This document shows, in pieces, positions 43,104 through 48,725 of a stretch of 64,000 nucleotides of DNA. Origin of the DNA: Verrucomicrobiota bacterium. GTDB lineage: Bacteria; Verrucomicrobiota; Verrucomicrobiia; JABWAM01. The translations under genes were made by a program, and so were the position numbers. Within the stretch, counting starts at the first letter, position 1. The number at the start of each line of letters is the position of its first letter. The stretch is taken from the NCBI GenBank assembly GCA_013288215.1, contig JABDCI010000005.1, positions 2,962-66,961 of the forward strand, written 5' to 3'. The notes below the pieces were generated by a model, which was not told the DNA's origin, searched no databases, and saw only the letters and a program-made list of their open reading frames with translations.

Positions 43104-45575
43104 ATGCAGAACCAGCCCAGCGAAGCCGGTCCGAGTCTGAAGCCGTGTCCTCAGTGCGGGACCATGGTGCAATTTAATTTGCAGGATGGCCGACACATCT
43201 GTCCGCAATGCGGGTACCTTCTTCCCGAACAGGTTGCCCACTACAAGCTGCTTCAGATCATCGGCACCGGCGGCATGGGGGCGGTTTACCGGGGCCTCGA
43301 TATCTCGCTCGAGCGAAACGTGGCAGTCAAGGTGATGCGCGAGGAATTCGCGAAAAATCCCCAATTTGTGGAAAGCTTTCTTCGTGAGGCGCGTGCCGCG
43401 GCTTCCCTCAACCATCCCAACGTTGCGCAAATTTATTCCTTCGGCGAGCAGGAGGGACGCTATTATCTTGTCATGGAACTGCTTCCTGGTGGAAGTCTCG
43501 ATGATCGTATCGAGAAAGAGCATCATGTATCGGAGGTGGATGTTTTGGATGTGGGAATCCAAGTGGCAAGCGGCTTGCGCGCGGCCTACGAGCGTGGATT
43601 GATCCATCGCGACATCAAGCCGGGCAACATTCTTTTTTCACAGGACGGAACGGCAAAGGTTGTGGATTTTGGCTTGGCGCGGTTCGTGACGAAGGCTGCT
43701 GCGCAGCACCAAGAAGAAGGCATTTGGGGAACTCCCTATTATATTGCACCCGAGAAGGTTTCGCAGAACAAAGAGGATTTCCGAAGCGATATTTACAGCC
43801 TTGGCGGCACGCTCTTTCATGCGTTGGCGGGACGTCCTCCTTTTGATGCCGGCACTTCGACCGAAGTCGTTCTCAAGCACCTGCATTCTCCCGCGGTTTC
43901 CCTCAAGACTTTCGCTCCCGACAGCACCGATCAGACTGCGGAAGTGATCGGGCGCATGCTTCGGCGCGATCCCGCTGACCGGCCGAAAAGCTACGACGAG
44001 TTGATCAATGCGCTGGCTTATGCGAAACGTTTTGCTCTCGAAAAAAGACCGCGTGCGGCTCTCGCTGAAGAGGACAGGGATCTTCCGATTGGCATGCTCG
44101 TGAGCACGGTGGCCATGATCGCTCTCACGCTGGCCCTTCTCGTATGGGGCTGGTATCACCGAAGCAAGATTTTCGGCGAGAGTCCGGGGTCTGCAGCGGT
44201 TTCGACAAATTCAATAACTCCGACCGCAAACACGGAAGCTGTTTCTCCTGCGCCGCAGCCTCAGGTTGCCACGCGTGACGAGTTCCTGATCGACATTGAC
44301 AACGCGCATGAGATCGCTAATCGCGAGGGCGCTTCTTCCGCCATCCCGCGTTTTGAGGACATTTTAAACCGCTTGCCCCCCAATCATGAGCTTCGACCGT
44401 GGGTCAAGTTGCACCTGGCTCGTGCCAAATTGATGACGGGCCGCGACGCTCCTGAGCTTGTGGAGCTGAGTGGCACGCGCACGGCTGACAGCTACGCCAA
44501 TGGTGTTAGCCCGGCAGACTACCCATTCTTTCTTGCGCTTTTGCTTCAAGGCAAAGTGCCTCAGGATGTATTCAGTCGTGCCATTTCAGGAATGCCCAGC
44601 TGGATGCAGGCGATCTCTCATTTCGACGCGGGCTTCGCCGCCCAAAAGCTGGACCGTCTCACAGACACTGCACGCTATTGGCGCGCTTACTCGGACATGA
44701 CGAAGGGCCCAGATGAAGAATGGGCCTTCGCGTATCAAACGCTCGCCCTCAATTTCGTGAATGAATACGAGCAGTACCAAACGATGGCGTCGGACATCAT
44801 GACCCTCCAAAATGCGGGAAGAGTCGAACAAGTTGCGACGCTCCTGAAAGAAAAGCAGGTTATCTGGCAAAATCCTTCCATTCGCACGCGCGTGGACAAG
44901 CTCACGGAGGTCAACCACGCTGCCCTTGCCAGGAAACGGGCGGACCAAGAGGAGAAAGCCCGACAAGAGGCGGCCCGACAGCAGGAGATCGACGCAGAAA
45001 ACCGATTGGTCGAAAATGCCCGCAGGCAGCGTGTCGGCTATCTCCAGGGATATCAATTCGATGCGCTTCTGGATTCCTGGCAAAAGCTTTCTTCTCAAGT
45101 GAAGTCGGATTCCAATCGCAAAGTGGTCCAGTATCATATCGAAGTGGACAAGTTGCTTGAGGAGTTCAAGCAGGTTCTGACGGAGGACATCCAGGATCAT
45201 CCTTATGAGGATCAGAATATCACCACCAAAACCAACTTGAAAATGGTCGGCATCCTTTCTGAAGTACGGGAAGAAAAGTTGATTTTCCGCACTCAATTTG
45301 CGCCAGGGCAAATCGCAGAAACTGCCTGCAAATGGTCGGATCTTTATCCCTCAACCATTTTGGAAATCGCCGAATATTATCTTGATCGCGATGAAAAAAC
45401 TTCCGGAGCGAATGCGAATGATCTGGCGCGGCGCGCGCTTATGATTGCGGTGTTCACTCGGGAATATGCTCTCTCCGAGGGCAAGATGCAAAAATATTTG
45501 GCCTATGCGATGAACGCCCAGGCTAATATTCGAAATCAAGTCGATCTGCTCTTTCCACCGGTCGTGCCGCGTTAA
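43104..45575 (+). CDS. Ser/Thr protein kinase with an N-terminal zinc ribbon, one TM and a large C-terminal domain of unknown function
   Basis: The zinc ribbon is CPQCG...CPQCG. The kinase motifs are intact: GTGGMGAVY, VAVKVM, HRDIKPGNIL, DFGLAR and GTPYYIAPE. The TM is IGMLVSTVAMIALTLALLVWGWY. About 470 aa of tail contain a coiled coil, RKRADQEEKARQEAARQQE. Confidence 0.9.
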   Translation: MQNQPSEAGPSLKPCPQCGTMVQFNLQDGRHICPQCGYLLPEQVAHYKLLQIIGTGGMGAVYRGLDISLERNVAVKVMREEFAKNPQFVESFLREARAAASLNHPNVAQIYSFGEQEGRYYLVMELLPGGSLDDRIEKEHHVSEVDVLDVGIQVASGLRAAYERGLIHRDIKPGNILFSQDGTAKVVDFGLARFVTKAAAQHQEEGIWGTPYYIAPEKVSQNKEDFRSDIYSLGGTLFHALAGRPPFDAGTSTEVVLKHLHSPAVSLKTFAPDSTDQTAEVIGRMLRRDPADRPKSYDELINALAYAKRFALEKRPRAALAEEDRDLPIGMLVSTVAMIALTLALLVWGWYHRSKIFGESPGSAAVSTNSITPTANTEAVSPAPQPQVATRDEFLIDIDNAHEIANREGASSAIPRFEDILNRLPPNHELRPWVKLHLARAKLMTGRDAPELVELSGTRTADSYANGVSPADYPFFLALLLQGKVPQDVFSRAISGMPSWMQAISHFDAGFAAQKLDRLTDTARYWRAYSDMTKGPDEEWAFAYQTLALNFVNEYEQYQTMASDIMTLQNAGRVEQVATLLKEKQVIWQNPSIRTRVDKLTEVNHAALARKRADQEEKARQEAARQQEIDAENRLVENARRQRVGYLQGYQFDALLDSWQKLSSQVKSDSNRKVVQYHIEVDKLLEEFKQVLTEDIQDHPYEDQNITTKTNLKMVGILSEVREEKLIFRTQFAPGQIAETACKWSDLYPSTILEIAEYYLDRDEKTSGANANDLARRALMIAVFTREYALSEGKMQKYLAYAMNAQANIRNQVDLLFPPVVPR

Positions 45576-45661: not shown

Positions 45662-47920
45662 TCAGTAAGGCAGTGGAAATCGGCGCGTGAGCTGTTTGAC
45701 ACTTTCGCGCACCTCGGCGAGCTTCGGTTCATCCTCGATGCTCACGAGCACGGTGGAAATGAGCGTTGCGATTTCGCGCATCTCGGCTTCTTTCATCCCG
45801 CGCGTCGTCACAGCAGGGGTGCCGATTCGGATGCCGCTCGTCACGAGCGGTTTTTCAGGGTCATACGGAATCAGATTTTTGTTCACGGTGATGCCTCCCT
45901 TGTCGAGGGCGATCTGAGCTTCTTTTCCTGTCACCTTTTGGTTGCGAAGATCGACGAGCATCAAATGATTGTCCGTGCCGCCGCTGACAATGCGGCAGCC
46001 ATTTTTATGGAGGCAATCGGCAAGCGTCTGAGCGTTTTTAACGATTTGCTCCTGGTAATCCTTAAATGAAGGCTGGAGGGCTTCTTGAAAGCAGACGGCT
46101 TTGGCGGCGATCACGTGCATCAAGGGGCCACCTTGGATGCCAGGCAGCACCATCGAATCGATCTCTTTGGCGAAACGTTCGCGGCAGAGGATAAGGCCGC
46201 CGCGAGGTCCGCGAAGGGTCTTATGCGTGGTCGTGGTGACGAAATCGGCATGCGGAACGGGGCTTGGATGAACACCGGTCGCGACCAAGCCGGCAATGTG
46301 GGCCATGTCGACGAAGAGCAAAGCATTCACCGAATTGGCGATTTGGCGCATTTTCTGAAAATCGATGATGCGAGGATAGGCGCTCGCGCCCACGGTGATG
46401 AGCTTTGGTTTATGTTCCTGCGCCAATTTCGCGGCGGTATCATAATCAATCCGCTCGTCTTCCTTCCGTACACCGTAGTGCACGACCTGATAAAATTGAC
46501 CTGAGAAGTTTCTGCTGAACCCATGCGTGAGATGGCCGCCGTGGGCGAGTTCCATCGTGAGGATCTTGTCGCCGGGCTTCAGGACGCTAAAGTAAACTGC
46601 CATATTGGCCTGGCTTCCGGAATGCGGCTGCACGTTGGCGTGTTCTGCTCCAAAGAGCTTTTTGGCGCGCTCGATGGCGAGCGATTCGGCAATGTCGACG
46701 AACTCGCATCCACCGTAATAGCGCTTTCCTGGATAACCTTCTGCATATTTGTTCGTCAGCACACTCCCCTGGGCCTCCAGGATGGCGGGGCTGGCGAAGT
46801 TTTCACTTGCGATGAGTTCGATGTTTTCCTGCTGACGCGTCTTTTCCTGTTGAATCGCGCGATAGATGGCCGGATCCGCATCGCGCAATACGGAGGAATC
46901 TCCCAGAGGCCTGTCCATTTTTTGGATTCGCTGCTCGTGGCGGCCACCCTCGAAGTGCGCCGTGAGCCAGCTATCAAGGATGCGCACCGCCTTGTCCGGA
47001 CCCGTCTCCATGGCTGCAAGACAGAGCACGTTGGCGTCGTTATGTTGGCGGCTCAGGCGAGCGGTGTTTTCGTCGTGCACCAGGGCGGCACGCGCGCCGG
47101 GGATGCGGTTGGCGGCCATGCTCATGCCGATGCCTGTCTTACAGATGAGCACGCCCAGATCGGCGCGCTGCTGAGCGACATCGCGGGCGACTGCCTGCCC
47201 GAAATCCGGATAATCTACGGATTCGGGCGTGAAAGTGCCGAGATCGGCGACCGGATATTGATTCTCTTCGAGATAAGATTTGAGAGCGTGTTTGAGCTCG
47301 ACTCCTCCATGATCGGCAGCAATGACAATGCTGGGTTTGTCCGTGCGTGAGCGTGAAGGTTTCGTGGAAGTTTGATTTTGCATAAATTTCAGGAGCGATG
47401 GAAGCGCGGATTGAATGGCATCCCGGCACGTTTGATACGTGAAATAGGATTGACCGATCGGATCGGGCACTTCGCGCTCAAACTCGGAAAGACCCTCTTC
47501 GAATTCCTTCACCAGGAAGAGTTTGTTGGCAGCCTCGGGATAAAGGGAAACGAGCGACCGAAAATGCGAGTGAGTCATCACAAAGATCGCATGGGCTTCC
47601 TGGATGAGCTTGTCGGTGACGGGCTGGGAGCGATGGTTTGAAATATCAAGGCCGATTTCACGCAACGCCCGCACCGCATTGTCGCTGGGGTGCTGTCCAG
47701 GATAGGCGCTTAAGCCGGCGGAAACGATTCGGATGCCGCCGCGATCTTGAACGAGTTGGCGCATTAAGCCTTCGGCCATCGGGCTGCGGCAGATGTTGCC
47801 TGTGCAAACAAAAAGAATGGTCTTCACGTATTCGGCGGCTGATCGGTTCCTCGCGCGTCCCAAAGAACGAAGCGGTTCCAGCAACCCGATAACTATTCCC
47901 TCCCATCCACTTGTCCGCAA
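45662..47920 (-). CDS. Tri-functional fusion: LMW protein (Tyr/Arg) phosphatase, ribose-5-phosphate isomerase B and serine hydroxymethyltransferase
   Basis: It is a single uninterrupted 752-codon ORF. Residues ~33-180 carry CTGNICRS (CX5R P-loop) and DP. Residues ~197-335 read [11 protein letters not shown]...[14 protein letters not shown]...FEGGRH (RpiB/LacAB). Residues ~345-752 read IELIASENF...[14 protein letters not shown]...[13 protein letters not shown] (GlyA). Confidence 0.85.
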
Positions 47921-47957: not shown

Positions 47958-48725
47958 TCAGCGCGCGCGGAAGATAAGGACGTTGCGAACGGGCCAATGA
48001 GGCGGAAGATCGATTTTGACTTCTTTCGAGTCCAAACAAAGCCCGCTTGAAGGCCCGCCATCCAGGTTTAACGCCCGGTCGATGGTCATGTCCAAGGAAT
48101 CGCACTTCTTTTTCAGGCAGAAAGCCAGGTTGAACAATGAAACCTCTGATGTGACGATCACGCCGAACTTGTCCTCCGCCTGCACGAGGACGGTGCGTTT
48201 GGCGATGGGACCGTCCGCTGGTAAAACGCCTATCACACCTCCCGGTTCGATCAAAAAAGGGCCGCCTTGGAGGGCGTTGGGAGCCGGATGATCGTTTCGG
48301 TTGAACCAATGAAGGGATGGCATGCCGCGTTTGTCGATCAACAGCATGCCGGAAAAGATCGATTTGCGGCTGGGATTGGAAACCTGTGTTCCATCGATGA
48401 CGCAGAGTCCTTCGGGTTCAAATCGGGAAGAAAAACAACCTCCGTTACACCCGAGGAAGGCGTGGTGATCATGTGTGAGCTGAGCGATGGTGGATCGACC
48501 TTCATTTTCCTCCTTTGGTTGGTCGATGATCGAAGCCACATAACAAGAAGCATTCATGAACACCGCATGGAGGGTGAAGGATTCCTCTTCGCGCTGGAAG
48601 CGCATTTTGAAGAAATGCGCTTCCAGCGAGATGGGCGTGCTCTCCAAAGTTTCGACTCTCCAATCCCCAGCACTGCAGGAGGAGGCAAAAAAGAGGCCGA
48701 GGACGACCGCTGTGCGAACATGCAT
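47958..48725 (-). CDS. Secreted phosphodiester glycosidase-family (DUF2233) protein
   Basis: It has a signal peptide, VVLGLFFASSCSA. The C-terminal ALNLDGGPSSGL motif is typical of the NAGPA/DUF2233 family. Confidence 0.65.
   Translation of the reverse strand: MHVRTAVVLGLFFASSCSAGDWRVETLESTPISLEAHFFKMRFQREEESFTLHAVFMNASCYVASIIDQPKEENEGRSTIAQLTHDHHAFLGCNGGCFSSRFEPEGLCVIDGTQVSNPSRKSIFSGMLLIDKRGMPSLHWFNRNDHPAPNALQGGPFLIEPGGVIGVLPADGPIAKRTVLVQAEDKFGVIVTSEVSLFNLAFCLKKKCDSLDMTIDRALNLDGGPSSGLCLDSKEVKIDLPPHWPVRNVLIFRAR

Follow-up and report, generated by a model that had tools for sequence, protein, structure and literature searches.

The window examined here, a stretch of 64,000 nucleotides from a Verrucomicrobiota genome, contains an open frame in which a low-molecular-weight protein phosphatase (LMW-PTP), ribose 5-phosphate isomerase B (RpiB) and serine hydroxymethyltransferase (SHMT, GlyA) follow one another. 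This raises two questions: whether such a protein is genuine, and whether the joining of three enzymes reflects a functional connection between them or the merger of genes that had long been neighbours.

Reading frame and start of the gene

An initial annotation of the locus had reported a single uninterrupted frame of 752 codons at 45662-47920 and left out its strand. The frame exists as described; it is encoded on the minus strand, opening with TTG 47920 and ending with the stop codon at 45662-45664. The true start is most likely GTG 47827-47825, giving a protein of 721 rather than 752 residues, since the homologues begin at query residue ~30-34, and the position of V32 is occupied by M, V or L. 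In the 31 codons upstream of this GTG the relatives show unrelated sequence or a stop codon. Two numberings are thereby in use, the 752-numbering counted from TTG 47920 and the 721-numbering counted from GTG 47827; residues below follow the former unless marked otherwise. No Shine-Dalgarno motif was seen by eye at a usable distance before GTG 47827, and a promoter and terminator scan around the gene returned matches no more frequently than shuffled sequence. The database gene call (P0002, 700 aa) is too short, because its start at Met53 removes the phosphatase P-loop. The features of the locus are as follows.

45662..47827, minus strand: fusion gene in its best limits, GTG start 47827-47825, stop 45662-45664, 721 aa (homology, 64-sequence alignment A1)
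47828..47920, minus strand: upstream in-frame extension (TTG 47920, TTG 47884), probably untranslated leader, 31 codons not conserved
47390..47818, minus strand: LMW-PTP (YwlE-like) domain, residues 35-177 in the 752-numbering (PF01451, LMWPc, profile 1-144/144, E 3.5e-31)
47333..47380, minus strand: 16-residue linker rich in Ser, Thr, Lys and Pro, residues 181-196, variable in length and sequence among relatives
46916..47329, minus strand: RpiB domain, residues 198-335 (PF02502, LacAB_rpiB, profile 1-138/138, E 1.3e-55)
46889..46915, minus strand: short RpiB-SHMT connector (HEQRIQKMD...) including Met344 (alignment of relatives)
45665..46888, minus strand: SHMT (GlyA) domain, residues 345-752 (PF00464 at residues 345-721, profile 1-399/399, E 1.6e-170)

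Domain organization

Pfam places LMWPc, LacAB_rpiB and SHMT at full length in the one frame, and NCBIfam concurs for SHMT and rpiB, so that the earlier reading of three domains is confirmed; the motifs quoted with it (CTGNICRS, a DP acid loop, a Ser/Thr/Lys-rich linker and the PLP lysine) are each present in the translation. The N-terminal domain shows the features of the LMW-PTP superfamily: (i) a C-X5-R-[ST] P-loop, here CTGNICRS at residues 39-46 (47783-47806); (ii) a DP acid loop at residues 153-154, the corresponding D122/P123 of the 721-numbering being invariant in the 64 sequences of A1; (iii) a full-length profile match of 108.8 bits against a cut-off of 23.2. The RpiB domain exceeds the equivalog cut-off of TIGR01120 (161.5 bits, cut-off 138.65) and retains DH, CKT, HN and RHEQR, with the codon of Cys260 at 47141-47143. 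These positions (DH, C-x-T/S, HN, R-H-x-x-R), whose catalytic roles we take to be those of E. coli RpiB, are shared by 27 of 30 triple fusions scored. The SHMT domain matches NF000586 over profile 1-403/404 with 664.5 bits (cut-off 335) and carries the PLP lysine, Lys567 (codon 46220-46222), in a 13-residue motif. In A1 the columns of this motif are invariant, apart from the penultimate Gly and a Thr that varies little: T533-T534-H535-K536-T537-L538-R539-G540-P541-R542 and G544 (721-numbering) do not vary, and T532 hardly does.

An AlphaFold2 model of the 721-aa protein has well-folded domains (mean pLDDT 84.9, pTM 0.57) and low confidence at both junctions, with a pLDDT of ~43 in the linker and below 50 at residues 307-310 of the model; no fixed arrangement of the domains is indicated by this prediction. 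The RpiB-SHMT connector is the shortest of the family in the source genome and its congener, other members having ~13 to 15 residues more. The dN/dS ratio is 0.03-0.04 in the SHMT domain, 0.11-0.28 in the phosphatase, 0.15-0.20 in RpiB and 0.2-1.2 in the linker, all of them rough values, finite for some pairs only, with dS nearly saturated even against the congener.

Distribution of the fusion among relatives

The source genome is a metagenome-assembled genome (MAG) of only 52% completeness, which gives some ground for suspecting that an assembly, binning or frameshift artefact has joined three separate genes. This suspicion is effectively refuted, because the single frame is conserved among relatives: the congener has it at 84% identity, and it recurs in ten members of the family, the source among them, and across classes of the phylum. 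In the search for the same architecture, proposed together with the initial annotation, more than 8000 cluster representatives matched, and every one of the best 120 combines PF01451, PF02502 and PF00464 at 62-84% identity. Of the 30 related genomes searched, 23 encode all three domains in a single frame.

Attention had been drawn in 2008 to the same three domains in a single protein of the same phylum, Minf_1669 of Methylacidiphilum infernorum V4 (Hou et al. 2008, Biol Direct 3:26, PMC2474590), in the sole paper found on the fusion. The earlier statement that no characterised fusion of all three was known thus stands as far as biochemistry is concerned, none having been found in the literature, and falls as regards the architecture itself. 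By its three domains, their order, the single frame and the conservation among relatives, the present gene is the usual phosphatase-RpiB-SHMT fusion of Verrucomicrobiota, of the Minf_1669 type, genuine and not new.

The relatives also bear on the proposal that internal starts are used as well, with separate RpiB-SHMT or SHMT as the main products and the full-length protein a minor one. Triple fusions of other classes keep the ancestral Met of RpiB (..M-KIAIGADHGG; loci L013-L017), and the source gene has an in-frame ATG (Met344) 9 codons ahead of the SHMT core. In the source family, however, Ser, Arg or Phe occupies the position of the ancestral RpiB Met, and no in-frame start codon lies nearby. 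Met344, which is replaced by I or L in some relatives, forms part of the C-terminal helix of RpiB (RRVxK[MIL]); nor does the sequence before it contain a Shine-Dalgarno-like motif. Internal initiation is accordingly regarded as improbable.

Origin and later rearrangements

In B. subtilis, ywlE, ywlF (rpiB) and glyA lie close together in one region, and the initial annotation had concluded that this neighbourhood is ancient. The comparison agrees with that view: phosphatase, rpiB and glyA occur in this order as unfused genes in Bacillaceae (Exiguobacterium, Jeotgalibacillus and a Bacillaceae MAG), Planctomycetia and Omnitrophota. The string ywlE - ywlF(rpiB) - (ywlG) - glyA of Bacillus and its relatives has the same genes in the same order as the source fusion; in contrast to it, the genes are separate, and 0.7-1.5 kb lie between rpiB and glyA in Bacillaceae. 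In S. aureus, ptpB is situated just upstream of glyA, likewise as a separate gene (PMC8001253). The comparative data support an origin of the fusion from such a string, in which three adjacent housekeeping genes of an old operon (a ywlE-like phosphatase, rpiB and glyA) merged through loss of stop codons and the short gaps between them. The linker marks the exact site at which the phosphatase gene ends with its stop codon in unfused relatives.

Several arrangements accompany the triple fusion, and the SHMT tree, which follows taxonomy, places the fusion states nested within it. In Lentisphaeria and Victivallaceae a phosphatase gene, with its stop codon at the linker position, precedes an RpiB-SHMT fusion. 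In Akkermansia the fused gene comprises RpiB-SHMT only. The RpiB-SHMT junction of these proteins is that of the source gene and, by their SHMT parts, they group within one Verrucomicrobiota clade with it, whereas the phosphatase is encoded apart, elsewhere in Akkermansia-type genomes and by the separate upstream gene in Lentisphaeria. The Chthoniobacterales (Udaeobacter, Terrimicrobiaceae) possess phosphatase-SHMT proteins with the same two enzymes and the same CTGN[IV]CRS P-loop; RpiB has been deleted in frame, a short Ser/Thr/Pro-rich linker stands in its place, and the genome carries a standalone rpiB at another site. These proteins form a large clade nested among triple fusions in the SHMT tree. 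In methanotrophic Verrucomicrobia the middle domain is without the Cys, Thr, His-Asn and Arg-His-Arg positions while the rest of the fusion persists, and this RpiB domain is, judging by its residues, catalytically dead. The loss was seen in the sampled methanotroph family (five genomes, all pmoA-positive), in contrast to the intact RpiB of the source gene; in one of these genomes the gene is split inside the RpiB domain.

Proposed metabolic coupling or channelling between the domains

The initial annotation had read the three-way fusion as an indication of functional coupling, possibly by phosphatase control of pentose-phosphate and one-carbon metabolism or by channelling between the two, and the same coupling had been inferred for Minf_1669 (Hou et al. 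2008, PMC2474590). Many phyla have rpiB next to glyA, and RpiB-SHMT fusions arose independently at least four times, in Verrucomicrobiota, Deferrimicrobia, Nitrospirota and Acidobacteriota, both of which would suit such a link. RpiB and SHMT, moreover, both supply nucleotide precursors. However, no intermediate is common to the isomerisation of ribose 5-phosphate (R5P) and the serine/glycine/folate reaction, the AlphaFold2 model shows flexible junctions (low-confidence linkers, pTM 0.57), and entire lineages, including the methanotrophs for which the idea was first put forward, have a deleted or dead RpiB and keep the remainder. This reading is therefore left without support: a fusion alone is no proof of catalytic coupling or channelling, channelling between these domains is unlikely, and we consider coupling as an explanation of the fusion very improbable.

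Character of the phosphatase domain

Among the solved structures that their depositors named LMW phosphatases, the best relatives of the N-terminal domain are the YwlE arginine phosphatases 4kk3, 1zgg and 4pic (79-88 bits), with YfkJ at 44 bits. The closest sequence relatives are thus YwlE proteins, the position is upstream of rpiB and glyA, and the source genome encodes a McsB kinase; by position and sequence the domain is assigned as a YwlE/PtpB orthologue, and it is probably a regulatory protein phosphatase carried along from the operon. It differs from YwlE/PtpB at P-loop position 5, where Ile replaces Thr. That Thr (C-x-G-N-T-C-R) is needed for phospho-arginine preference according to PMC7772506, citing Fuhrmann 2013. 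Position 5 is I, V or L in most Verrucomicrobiae.

A switch of specificity linked to fusion (Thr or Ser to Ile, Val or Leu) was considered and rejected. In the first sample position 5 was hydrophobic in 51 of 55 fused Verrucomicrobiae forms and polar in 19 of 22 unfused ones, a contrast comprising only 6 independent comparisons (sign test, p about 0.125). Twenty loci added from other classes broke the pattern, with five fused genes carrying S or T and two unfused genes carrying I, so that the difference is an effect of lineage and not of fusion. Two further candidates were discarded. A pairing of the phosphatase with the convergent Ser/Thr kinase gene at 43104-45575 has no conserved link, the adjacency being confined to the two closest relatives. 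A role of the domain in binding PLP or delivering it to SHMT is a remote idea, its sole support being an entry in a reference list on PLP analogues as known LMW-PTP ligands.

Alternatively, the tie between phosphatase and SHMT may serve a specific purpose, the YwlE-type phosphatase of the cell acting in cis or locally on the enzymes fused to it. Removal of phospho-arginine made by McsB (or of phospho-tyrosine) could, for example, protect or regulate SHMT and RpiB against ClpC-dependent turnover, in which case RpiB would serve chiefly as a spacer or for oligomerisation. The RpiB-less clade of Chthoniobacterales and the retention of a dead middle domain by the methanotrophs point in this direction, as does the kinship with YwlE. 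A McsB-type kinase (PF00217) was detected in all 31 Verrucomicrobiae genomes searched and, of 14 control genomes, in B. subtilis only, and the source genome has a mcsA-like/mcsB/clpC operon on contig C7. In the source genome and its congener no YwlE-type phosphatase besides the fused domain was detected; the other LMW-PTP-like matches, with P-loops CTGNSxRS in the former and CTGNSCRS in the latter, are read as ArsC-type, and a further short LMWPc-like ORF lies on contig C42 of the source genome. Against the tether stand the Ile at position 5 in place of the Thr required for phospho-arginine preference (PMC7772506), the situation in Akkermansia, where phosphatase and RpiB-SHMT were split and both kept, and the lack of any confident phosphatase-SHMT contact in the AlphaFold2 model. 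Taken together, a specific tether appears unlikely. Its most explicit form is doubtful: the phosphatase would be the verrucomicrobial YwlE of a Gram-negative-type McsA-McsB-ClpC system, with a tie to SHMT that selection preserves even where RpiB is dead or deleted and that provides in-cis shielding or regulation against phospho-arginine tagging and ClpC-dependent degradation. If this were true, the SHMT fusion would be a self-protecting metabolic enzyme.

Probable co-expression of three enzymes

The explanation preferred here, to which we give a probability of roughly 60%, is that of an ordinary fusion of the Minf_1669 type, derived from operon merger, in which three independent enzymes on flexible linkers are co-expressed. 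The product would probably consist of three enzymes, each folding on its own and catalytically competent, with a flexible linker at one junction and a short connector at the other. Its benefit would most likely be the obligatory 1:1 co-expression of enzymes feeding nucleotide synthesis, RpiB by way of R5P to PRPP and SHMT through glycine and one-carbon units. No glyA-type match other than the SHMT part was found in the source genome. RpiA (PF06026) was absent from 30 of the 31 genomes searched, the source included, the same search recovering it in 11 of 14 named control genomes, and no second RpiB or SHMT match was found in five near-complete genomes of the same family (G001, G002, G004, G005 and G008, each at least 92% complete). 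In the source genome, contig C42 encodes another RpiB that stands alone, and therefore the term "sole isomerase" is not strictly true of this genome.

Two observations count against co-expression of independent enzymes as the whole explanation. The tether between phosphatase and SHMT is kept where RpiB is deleted or dead, which hints at more than co-expression, and the separate RpiB-SHMT fusions outside Verrucomicrobiota could mean selection rather than accident.

Relevance of the fusion family

The source gene itself adds nothing new, as its architecture is standard for the phylum, stands in public databases under single-enzyme names and was described in 2008 (PMC2474590). It is of value for annotation, where such fusions are named solely "ribose 5-phosphate isomerase B" or "glycine hydroxymethyltransferase", and where gene callers can truncate the phosphatase P-loop, as in the 700-aa call. 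The triple, RpiB-SHMT, phosphatase-SHMT and dead-RpiB forms constitute a natural series for asking whether fusions of operon neighbours are selected or merely tolerated, and the family lends itself to testing whether phosphatases of the YwlE type cooperate with McsB in bacteria other than Gram-positive ones.

The fusion gene and its reading frame

In silico analysis revealed a minus-strand open frame of 752 uninterrupted codons, from TTG 47920 to the stop codon at 45662-45664. As the initial annotation had proposed, this single ORF joins a low-molecular-weight phosphatase (LMW-PTP), RpiB and serine hydroxymethyltransferase (SHMT, GlyA): three complete Pfam domains follow in the claimed order, and the motifs quoted earlier are all present in the frame. 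The NCBIfam scores are 161.5 for rpiB (TIGR01120) vs a curated cut-off of 138.65, and 664.5 for SHMT (NF000586) vs 335.

Domains and flanking genes of the fusion gene (window coordinates; residues of the 752-codon frame)
Residues 35-177, minus strand: LMWPc, complete Pfam domain
Residues 198-335, minus strand: LacAB_rpiB, complete Pfam domain
Residues 345-721, minus strand: SHMT, complete Pfam domain
47958-48725, minus strand: secreted NAGPA/DUF2233 phosphodiester glycosidase, upstream on the same strand, 130-nt gap
43104-45575, plus strand: zinc-ribbon Ser/Thr kinase, convergent with the fusion gene

The adjacency of the Ser/Thr kinase is kept in the two closest relatives only.

The homologues have their N-termini at query residue ~30-34 and place Met, Val or Leu opposite V32; the 31 codons upstream of GTG 47827 are without conservation in relatives. 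The position of these N-termini points to GTG 47827 as the likely true start, giving 721 residues with the N-terminus [15 protein letters not shown]. The recorded gene call (P0002, 700 aa, window 45665-47762) is too short, because its start at Met53 removes the catalytic P-loop. Several calls in relatives (700-713 aa) look shortened in the same manner.

Distribution of the triple fusion

All of the best 120 of at least 8000 matches in the protein collection carry the three Pfam domains (62-84% identity, 700-750 aa); they originate from Verrucomicrobiota MAGs, an Akkermansiaceae MAG and Pedosphaera, and their source names are only “ribose 5-phosphate isomerase B” or “glycine hydroxymethyltransferase”. 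Besides the window's own genome, the single-frame architecture was found in 23 genomes (31 related genomes searched); among them are the congener, at 84% identity, and the nine members of the same family without exception. Across the phylum, 301 genomes with a completeness of 85% or more were sampled, and the architecture recurs in many Verrucomicrobiota families spread over several classes. Given this conservation in best matches, relatives and phylum sample, an assembly or frameshift artefact can be regarded as excluded for practical purposes.

Hou et al. described the same architecture in 2008, in Minf_1669 of Methylacidiphilum infernorum V4 (PMC2474590). A literature search found no biochemical study of the triple fusion. 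The gene in the window belongs to this already known fusion family as a typical and intact representative.

Constraint and predicted structure

In a 64-sequence alignment, invariant columns comprise the DP acid loop, the positions Asp-His, Cys, His-Asn and His/Arg of RpiB, and the SHMT lysine motif; nearly all of the fused Verrucomicrobiae proteins have CTGN[IVL]CRS as their P-loop. Synonymous sites are saturated even in the comparison with the congener, so that only some dN/dS values are finite: 0.03-0.04 (SHMT), 0.11-0.28 (phosphatase), 0.15-0.20 (RpiB) and 0.2-1.2 (linker). These values indicate purifying selection on all three domains but not on the linker. AlphaFold2 on the same alignment gave a mean pLDDT of 84.9 and a pTM of 0.57, with confidence falling at residues 153-162 (linker), 307-310 (RpiB-SHMT connector) and 357-373 of the 721-residue protein; the model suggests beads that are well folded but whose mutual arrangement is not confidently fixed, at least in the monomer.

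As for internal starts, the ancestral RpiB Met, kept in triple fusions of other classes (loci L013-L017), is replaced by Ser, Arg or Phe in the window's family. Relatives have Ile or Leu opposite Met344, a residue of the RpiB-SHMT connector that forms part of the RpiB C-terminal helix, and no Shine-Dalgarno-like motif is seen before it in the window's sequence. An obligate full-length product is most likely in the window's lineage.

Origin and variants of the fusion

Gene order was compared at 137 loci. Separate, adjacent phosphatase, rpiB and glyA genes occur in Bacillaceae (Exiguobacterium and Jeotgalibacillus, rpiB-to-glyA spacing 0.7-1.5 kb), a Planctomycetia MAG and an Omnitrophota MAG (named records), and many Thermodesulfobacteriota, Acidobacteriota, Ignavibacteriota and Nitrospirota have rpiB next to glyA. 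S. aureus carries its arginine phosphatase gene, ptpB, directly upstream of glyA (PMC8001253). The ywlE/rpiB/glyA neighbourhood noted for Bacillus is therefore real and, as had been supposed, old.

Arrangements of the three domains in the compared loci
Phosphatase gene next to RpiB-SHMT fusion: Lentisphaeria, Victivallaceae; the phosphatase stop codon falls exactly at the window's linker position
Triple fusion: within Verrucomicrobiota
RpiB-SHMT alone: Akkermansia
Phosphatase-SHMT without RpiB: a large Chthoniobacterales/Udaeobacter/Terrimicrobiaceae group (L030, L031, L081-L101, L107, L108, L111, L114-L116)
Phosphatase and SHMT as separate adjacent genes: within Verrucomicrobiota

The SHMT-domain tree (117 rows, quick IQ-TREE, root not inferred) tracks taxonomy. 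The Verrucomicrobiota/Lentisphaerota SHMT sequences group together with a support of 93, triple fusions lying on both sides, and the phosphatase-SHMT and Akkermansia forms fall within the starred clade (98), alongside triple-fusion Chthoniobacteraceae. These two forms are best read as domain losses from the triple fusion, a direction that the unrooted tree leaves to inference. RpiB-SHMT fusions outside Verrucomicrobiota (L050 and L055, Deferrimicrobiaceae; L053, an Acidobacteriota MAG; L069, a Nitrospirota MAG) each nest with the unfused rpiB and glyA of their own phylum and are therefore independent, recurrent events. In the Verrucomicrobiota MAG JAKQHR010000012.1 (L044), a 364-aa frame upstream of RpiB-SHMT contains the phosphatase, which is thus fused at its N-terminal side to another element; this may be TsaC/Sua5.

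The RpiB domain and the proposed metabolic coupling

Of the 31 relatives searched, 30 gave no RpiA (PF06026) match (the control search detected it in 11 of 14 named genomes), and near-complete genomes of the window's family gave no second RpiB or SHMT match; this would leave the fused protein to supply both functions there. The window's own genome has an extra standalone RpiB, with about 39-40% identity and its catalytic positions in place, on another contig:

C42 (locus L127), 160-540 and 1617-2204: standalone RpiB and a nearby small ORF whose LMWPc-like P-loop, CALNKWRS, is atypical

Its surroundings are unrelated (methyladenine glycosylase, glyoxalase and CHAD genes). Because the congener is without such a copy, it may be strain-specific or mis-binned.

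The initial annotation took the fusion as a sign of functional coupling, possibly of pentose-phosphate and one-carbon metabolism, a link first proposed for the methanotroph lineage (Hou et al., PMC2474590). In the methanotroph family sampled (pmoA in 5 of 5 genomes), the middle domain is without the Cys, Thr, His-Asn and Arg-His-Arg positions (L019 of G016, L020 of G154), and one genus has also lost the His of Asp-His. The fusion gene of G301 is split into two frames inside the RpiB domain (L117/L118), and a standalone RpiB is present in all three genomes checked (G016, G026, G301). In Chthoniobacterales RpiB is removed entirely, with phosphatase and SHMT still in one frame. Dead or deleted RpiB thus weakens the coupling idea, most of all in the methanotroph lineage, and its loss with both partners kept suggests that what the fusion conserves may be the tether between phosphatase and SHMT.

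Identity of the phosphatase and the McsB context

Protein-arginine phosphorylation is usually described in Gram-positives. Every one of the 31 Verrucomicrobiae genomes searched has a McsB-type kinase (PF00217); of 14 controls, only B. subtilis does. Outside the window, contig C7 of the same genome (L123, 3347-7591) carries an operon of mcsA-like (UVR motif), McsB-type ATP:guanido phosphotransferase (mcsB) and clpC genes; such a system appears to be general in the class. PDB 4egs aside, the solved structures nearest to the window's phosphatase domain are the YwlE arginine phosphatases 4kk3, 1zgg and 4pic (79-88 bits). Tyrosine phosphatases score lower, with 44 bits for YfkJ, 64 bits for Wzb and 49 bits for PtpA. 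Other LMW-PTP-like matches in the window's genome and its congener have CTGNSxRS or CTGNSCRS P-loops and are read as ArsC-type; aside from the short C42 ORF, no YwlE-type phosphatase other than the fused domain was detected in either genome. The top solved match, 4egs (a chain of 180 aa), carries the deposited name “Ribose 5-phosphate isomerase RpiB”. It aligns to the LMW-PTP domain, not to RpiB; the name was probably carried over from a neighbour or fusion annotation.

The main rival explanation, considered unlikely, is that phosphatase and SHMT are specifically related, possibly through McsB; it would draw on this context and on the retained tether. Speaking against an arginine-phosphatase assignment, P-loop position 5 is Ile and not Thr, the residue shown to confer phospho-arginine preference (PMC7772506). 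A Thr-to-Ile/Val/Leu change tied to the fusion was also considered and rejected, as it fails with more lineages sampled.

The preferred reading, to which as a whole a probability of roughly 0.6 is given, is that ancient operon neighbours fused into one gene, that its single chain carries three independent enzymes, and that the fusion is favoured or tolerated for fixing the co-expression of nucleotide-precursor enzymes.
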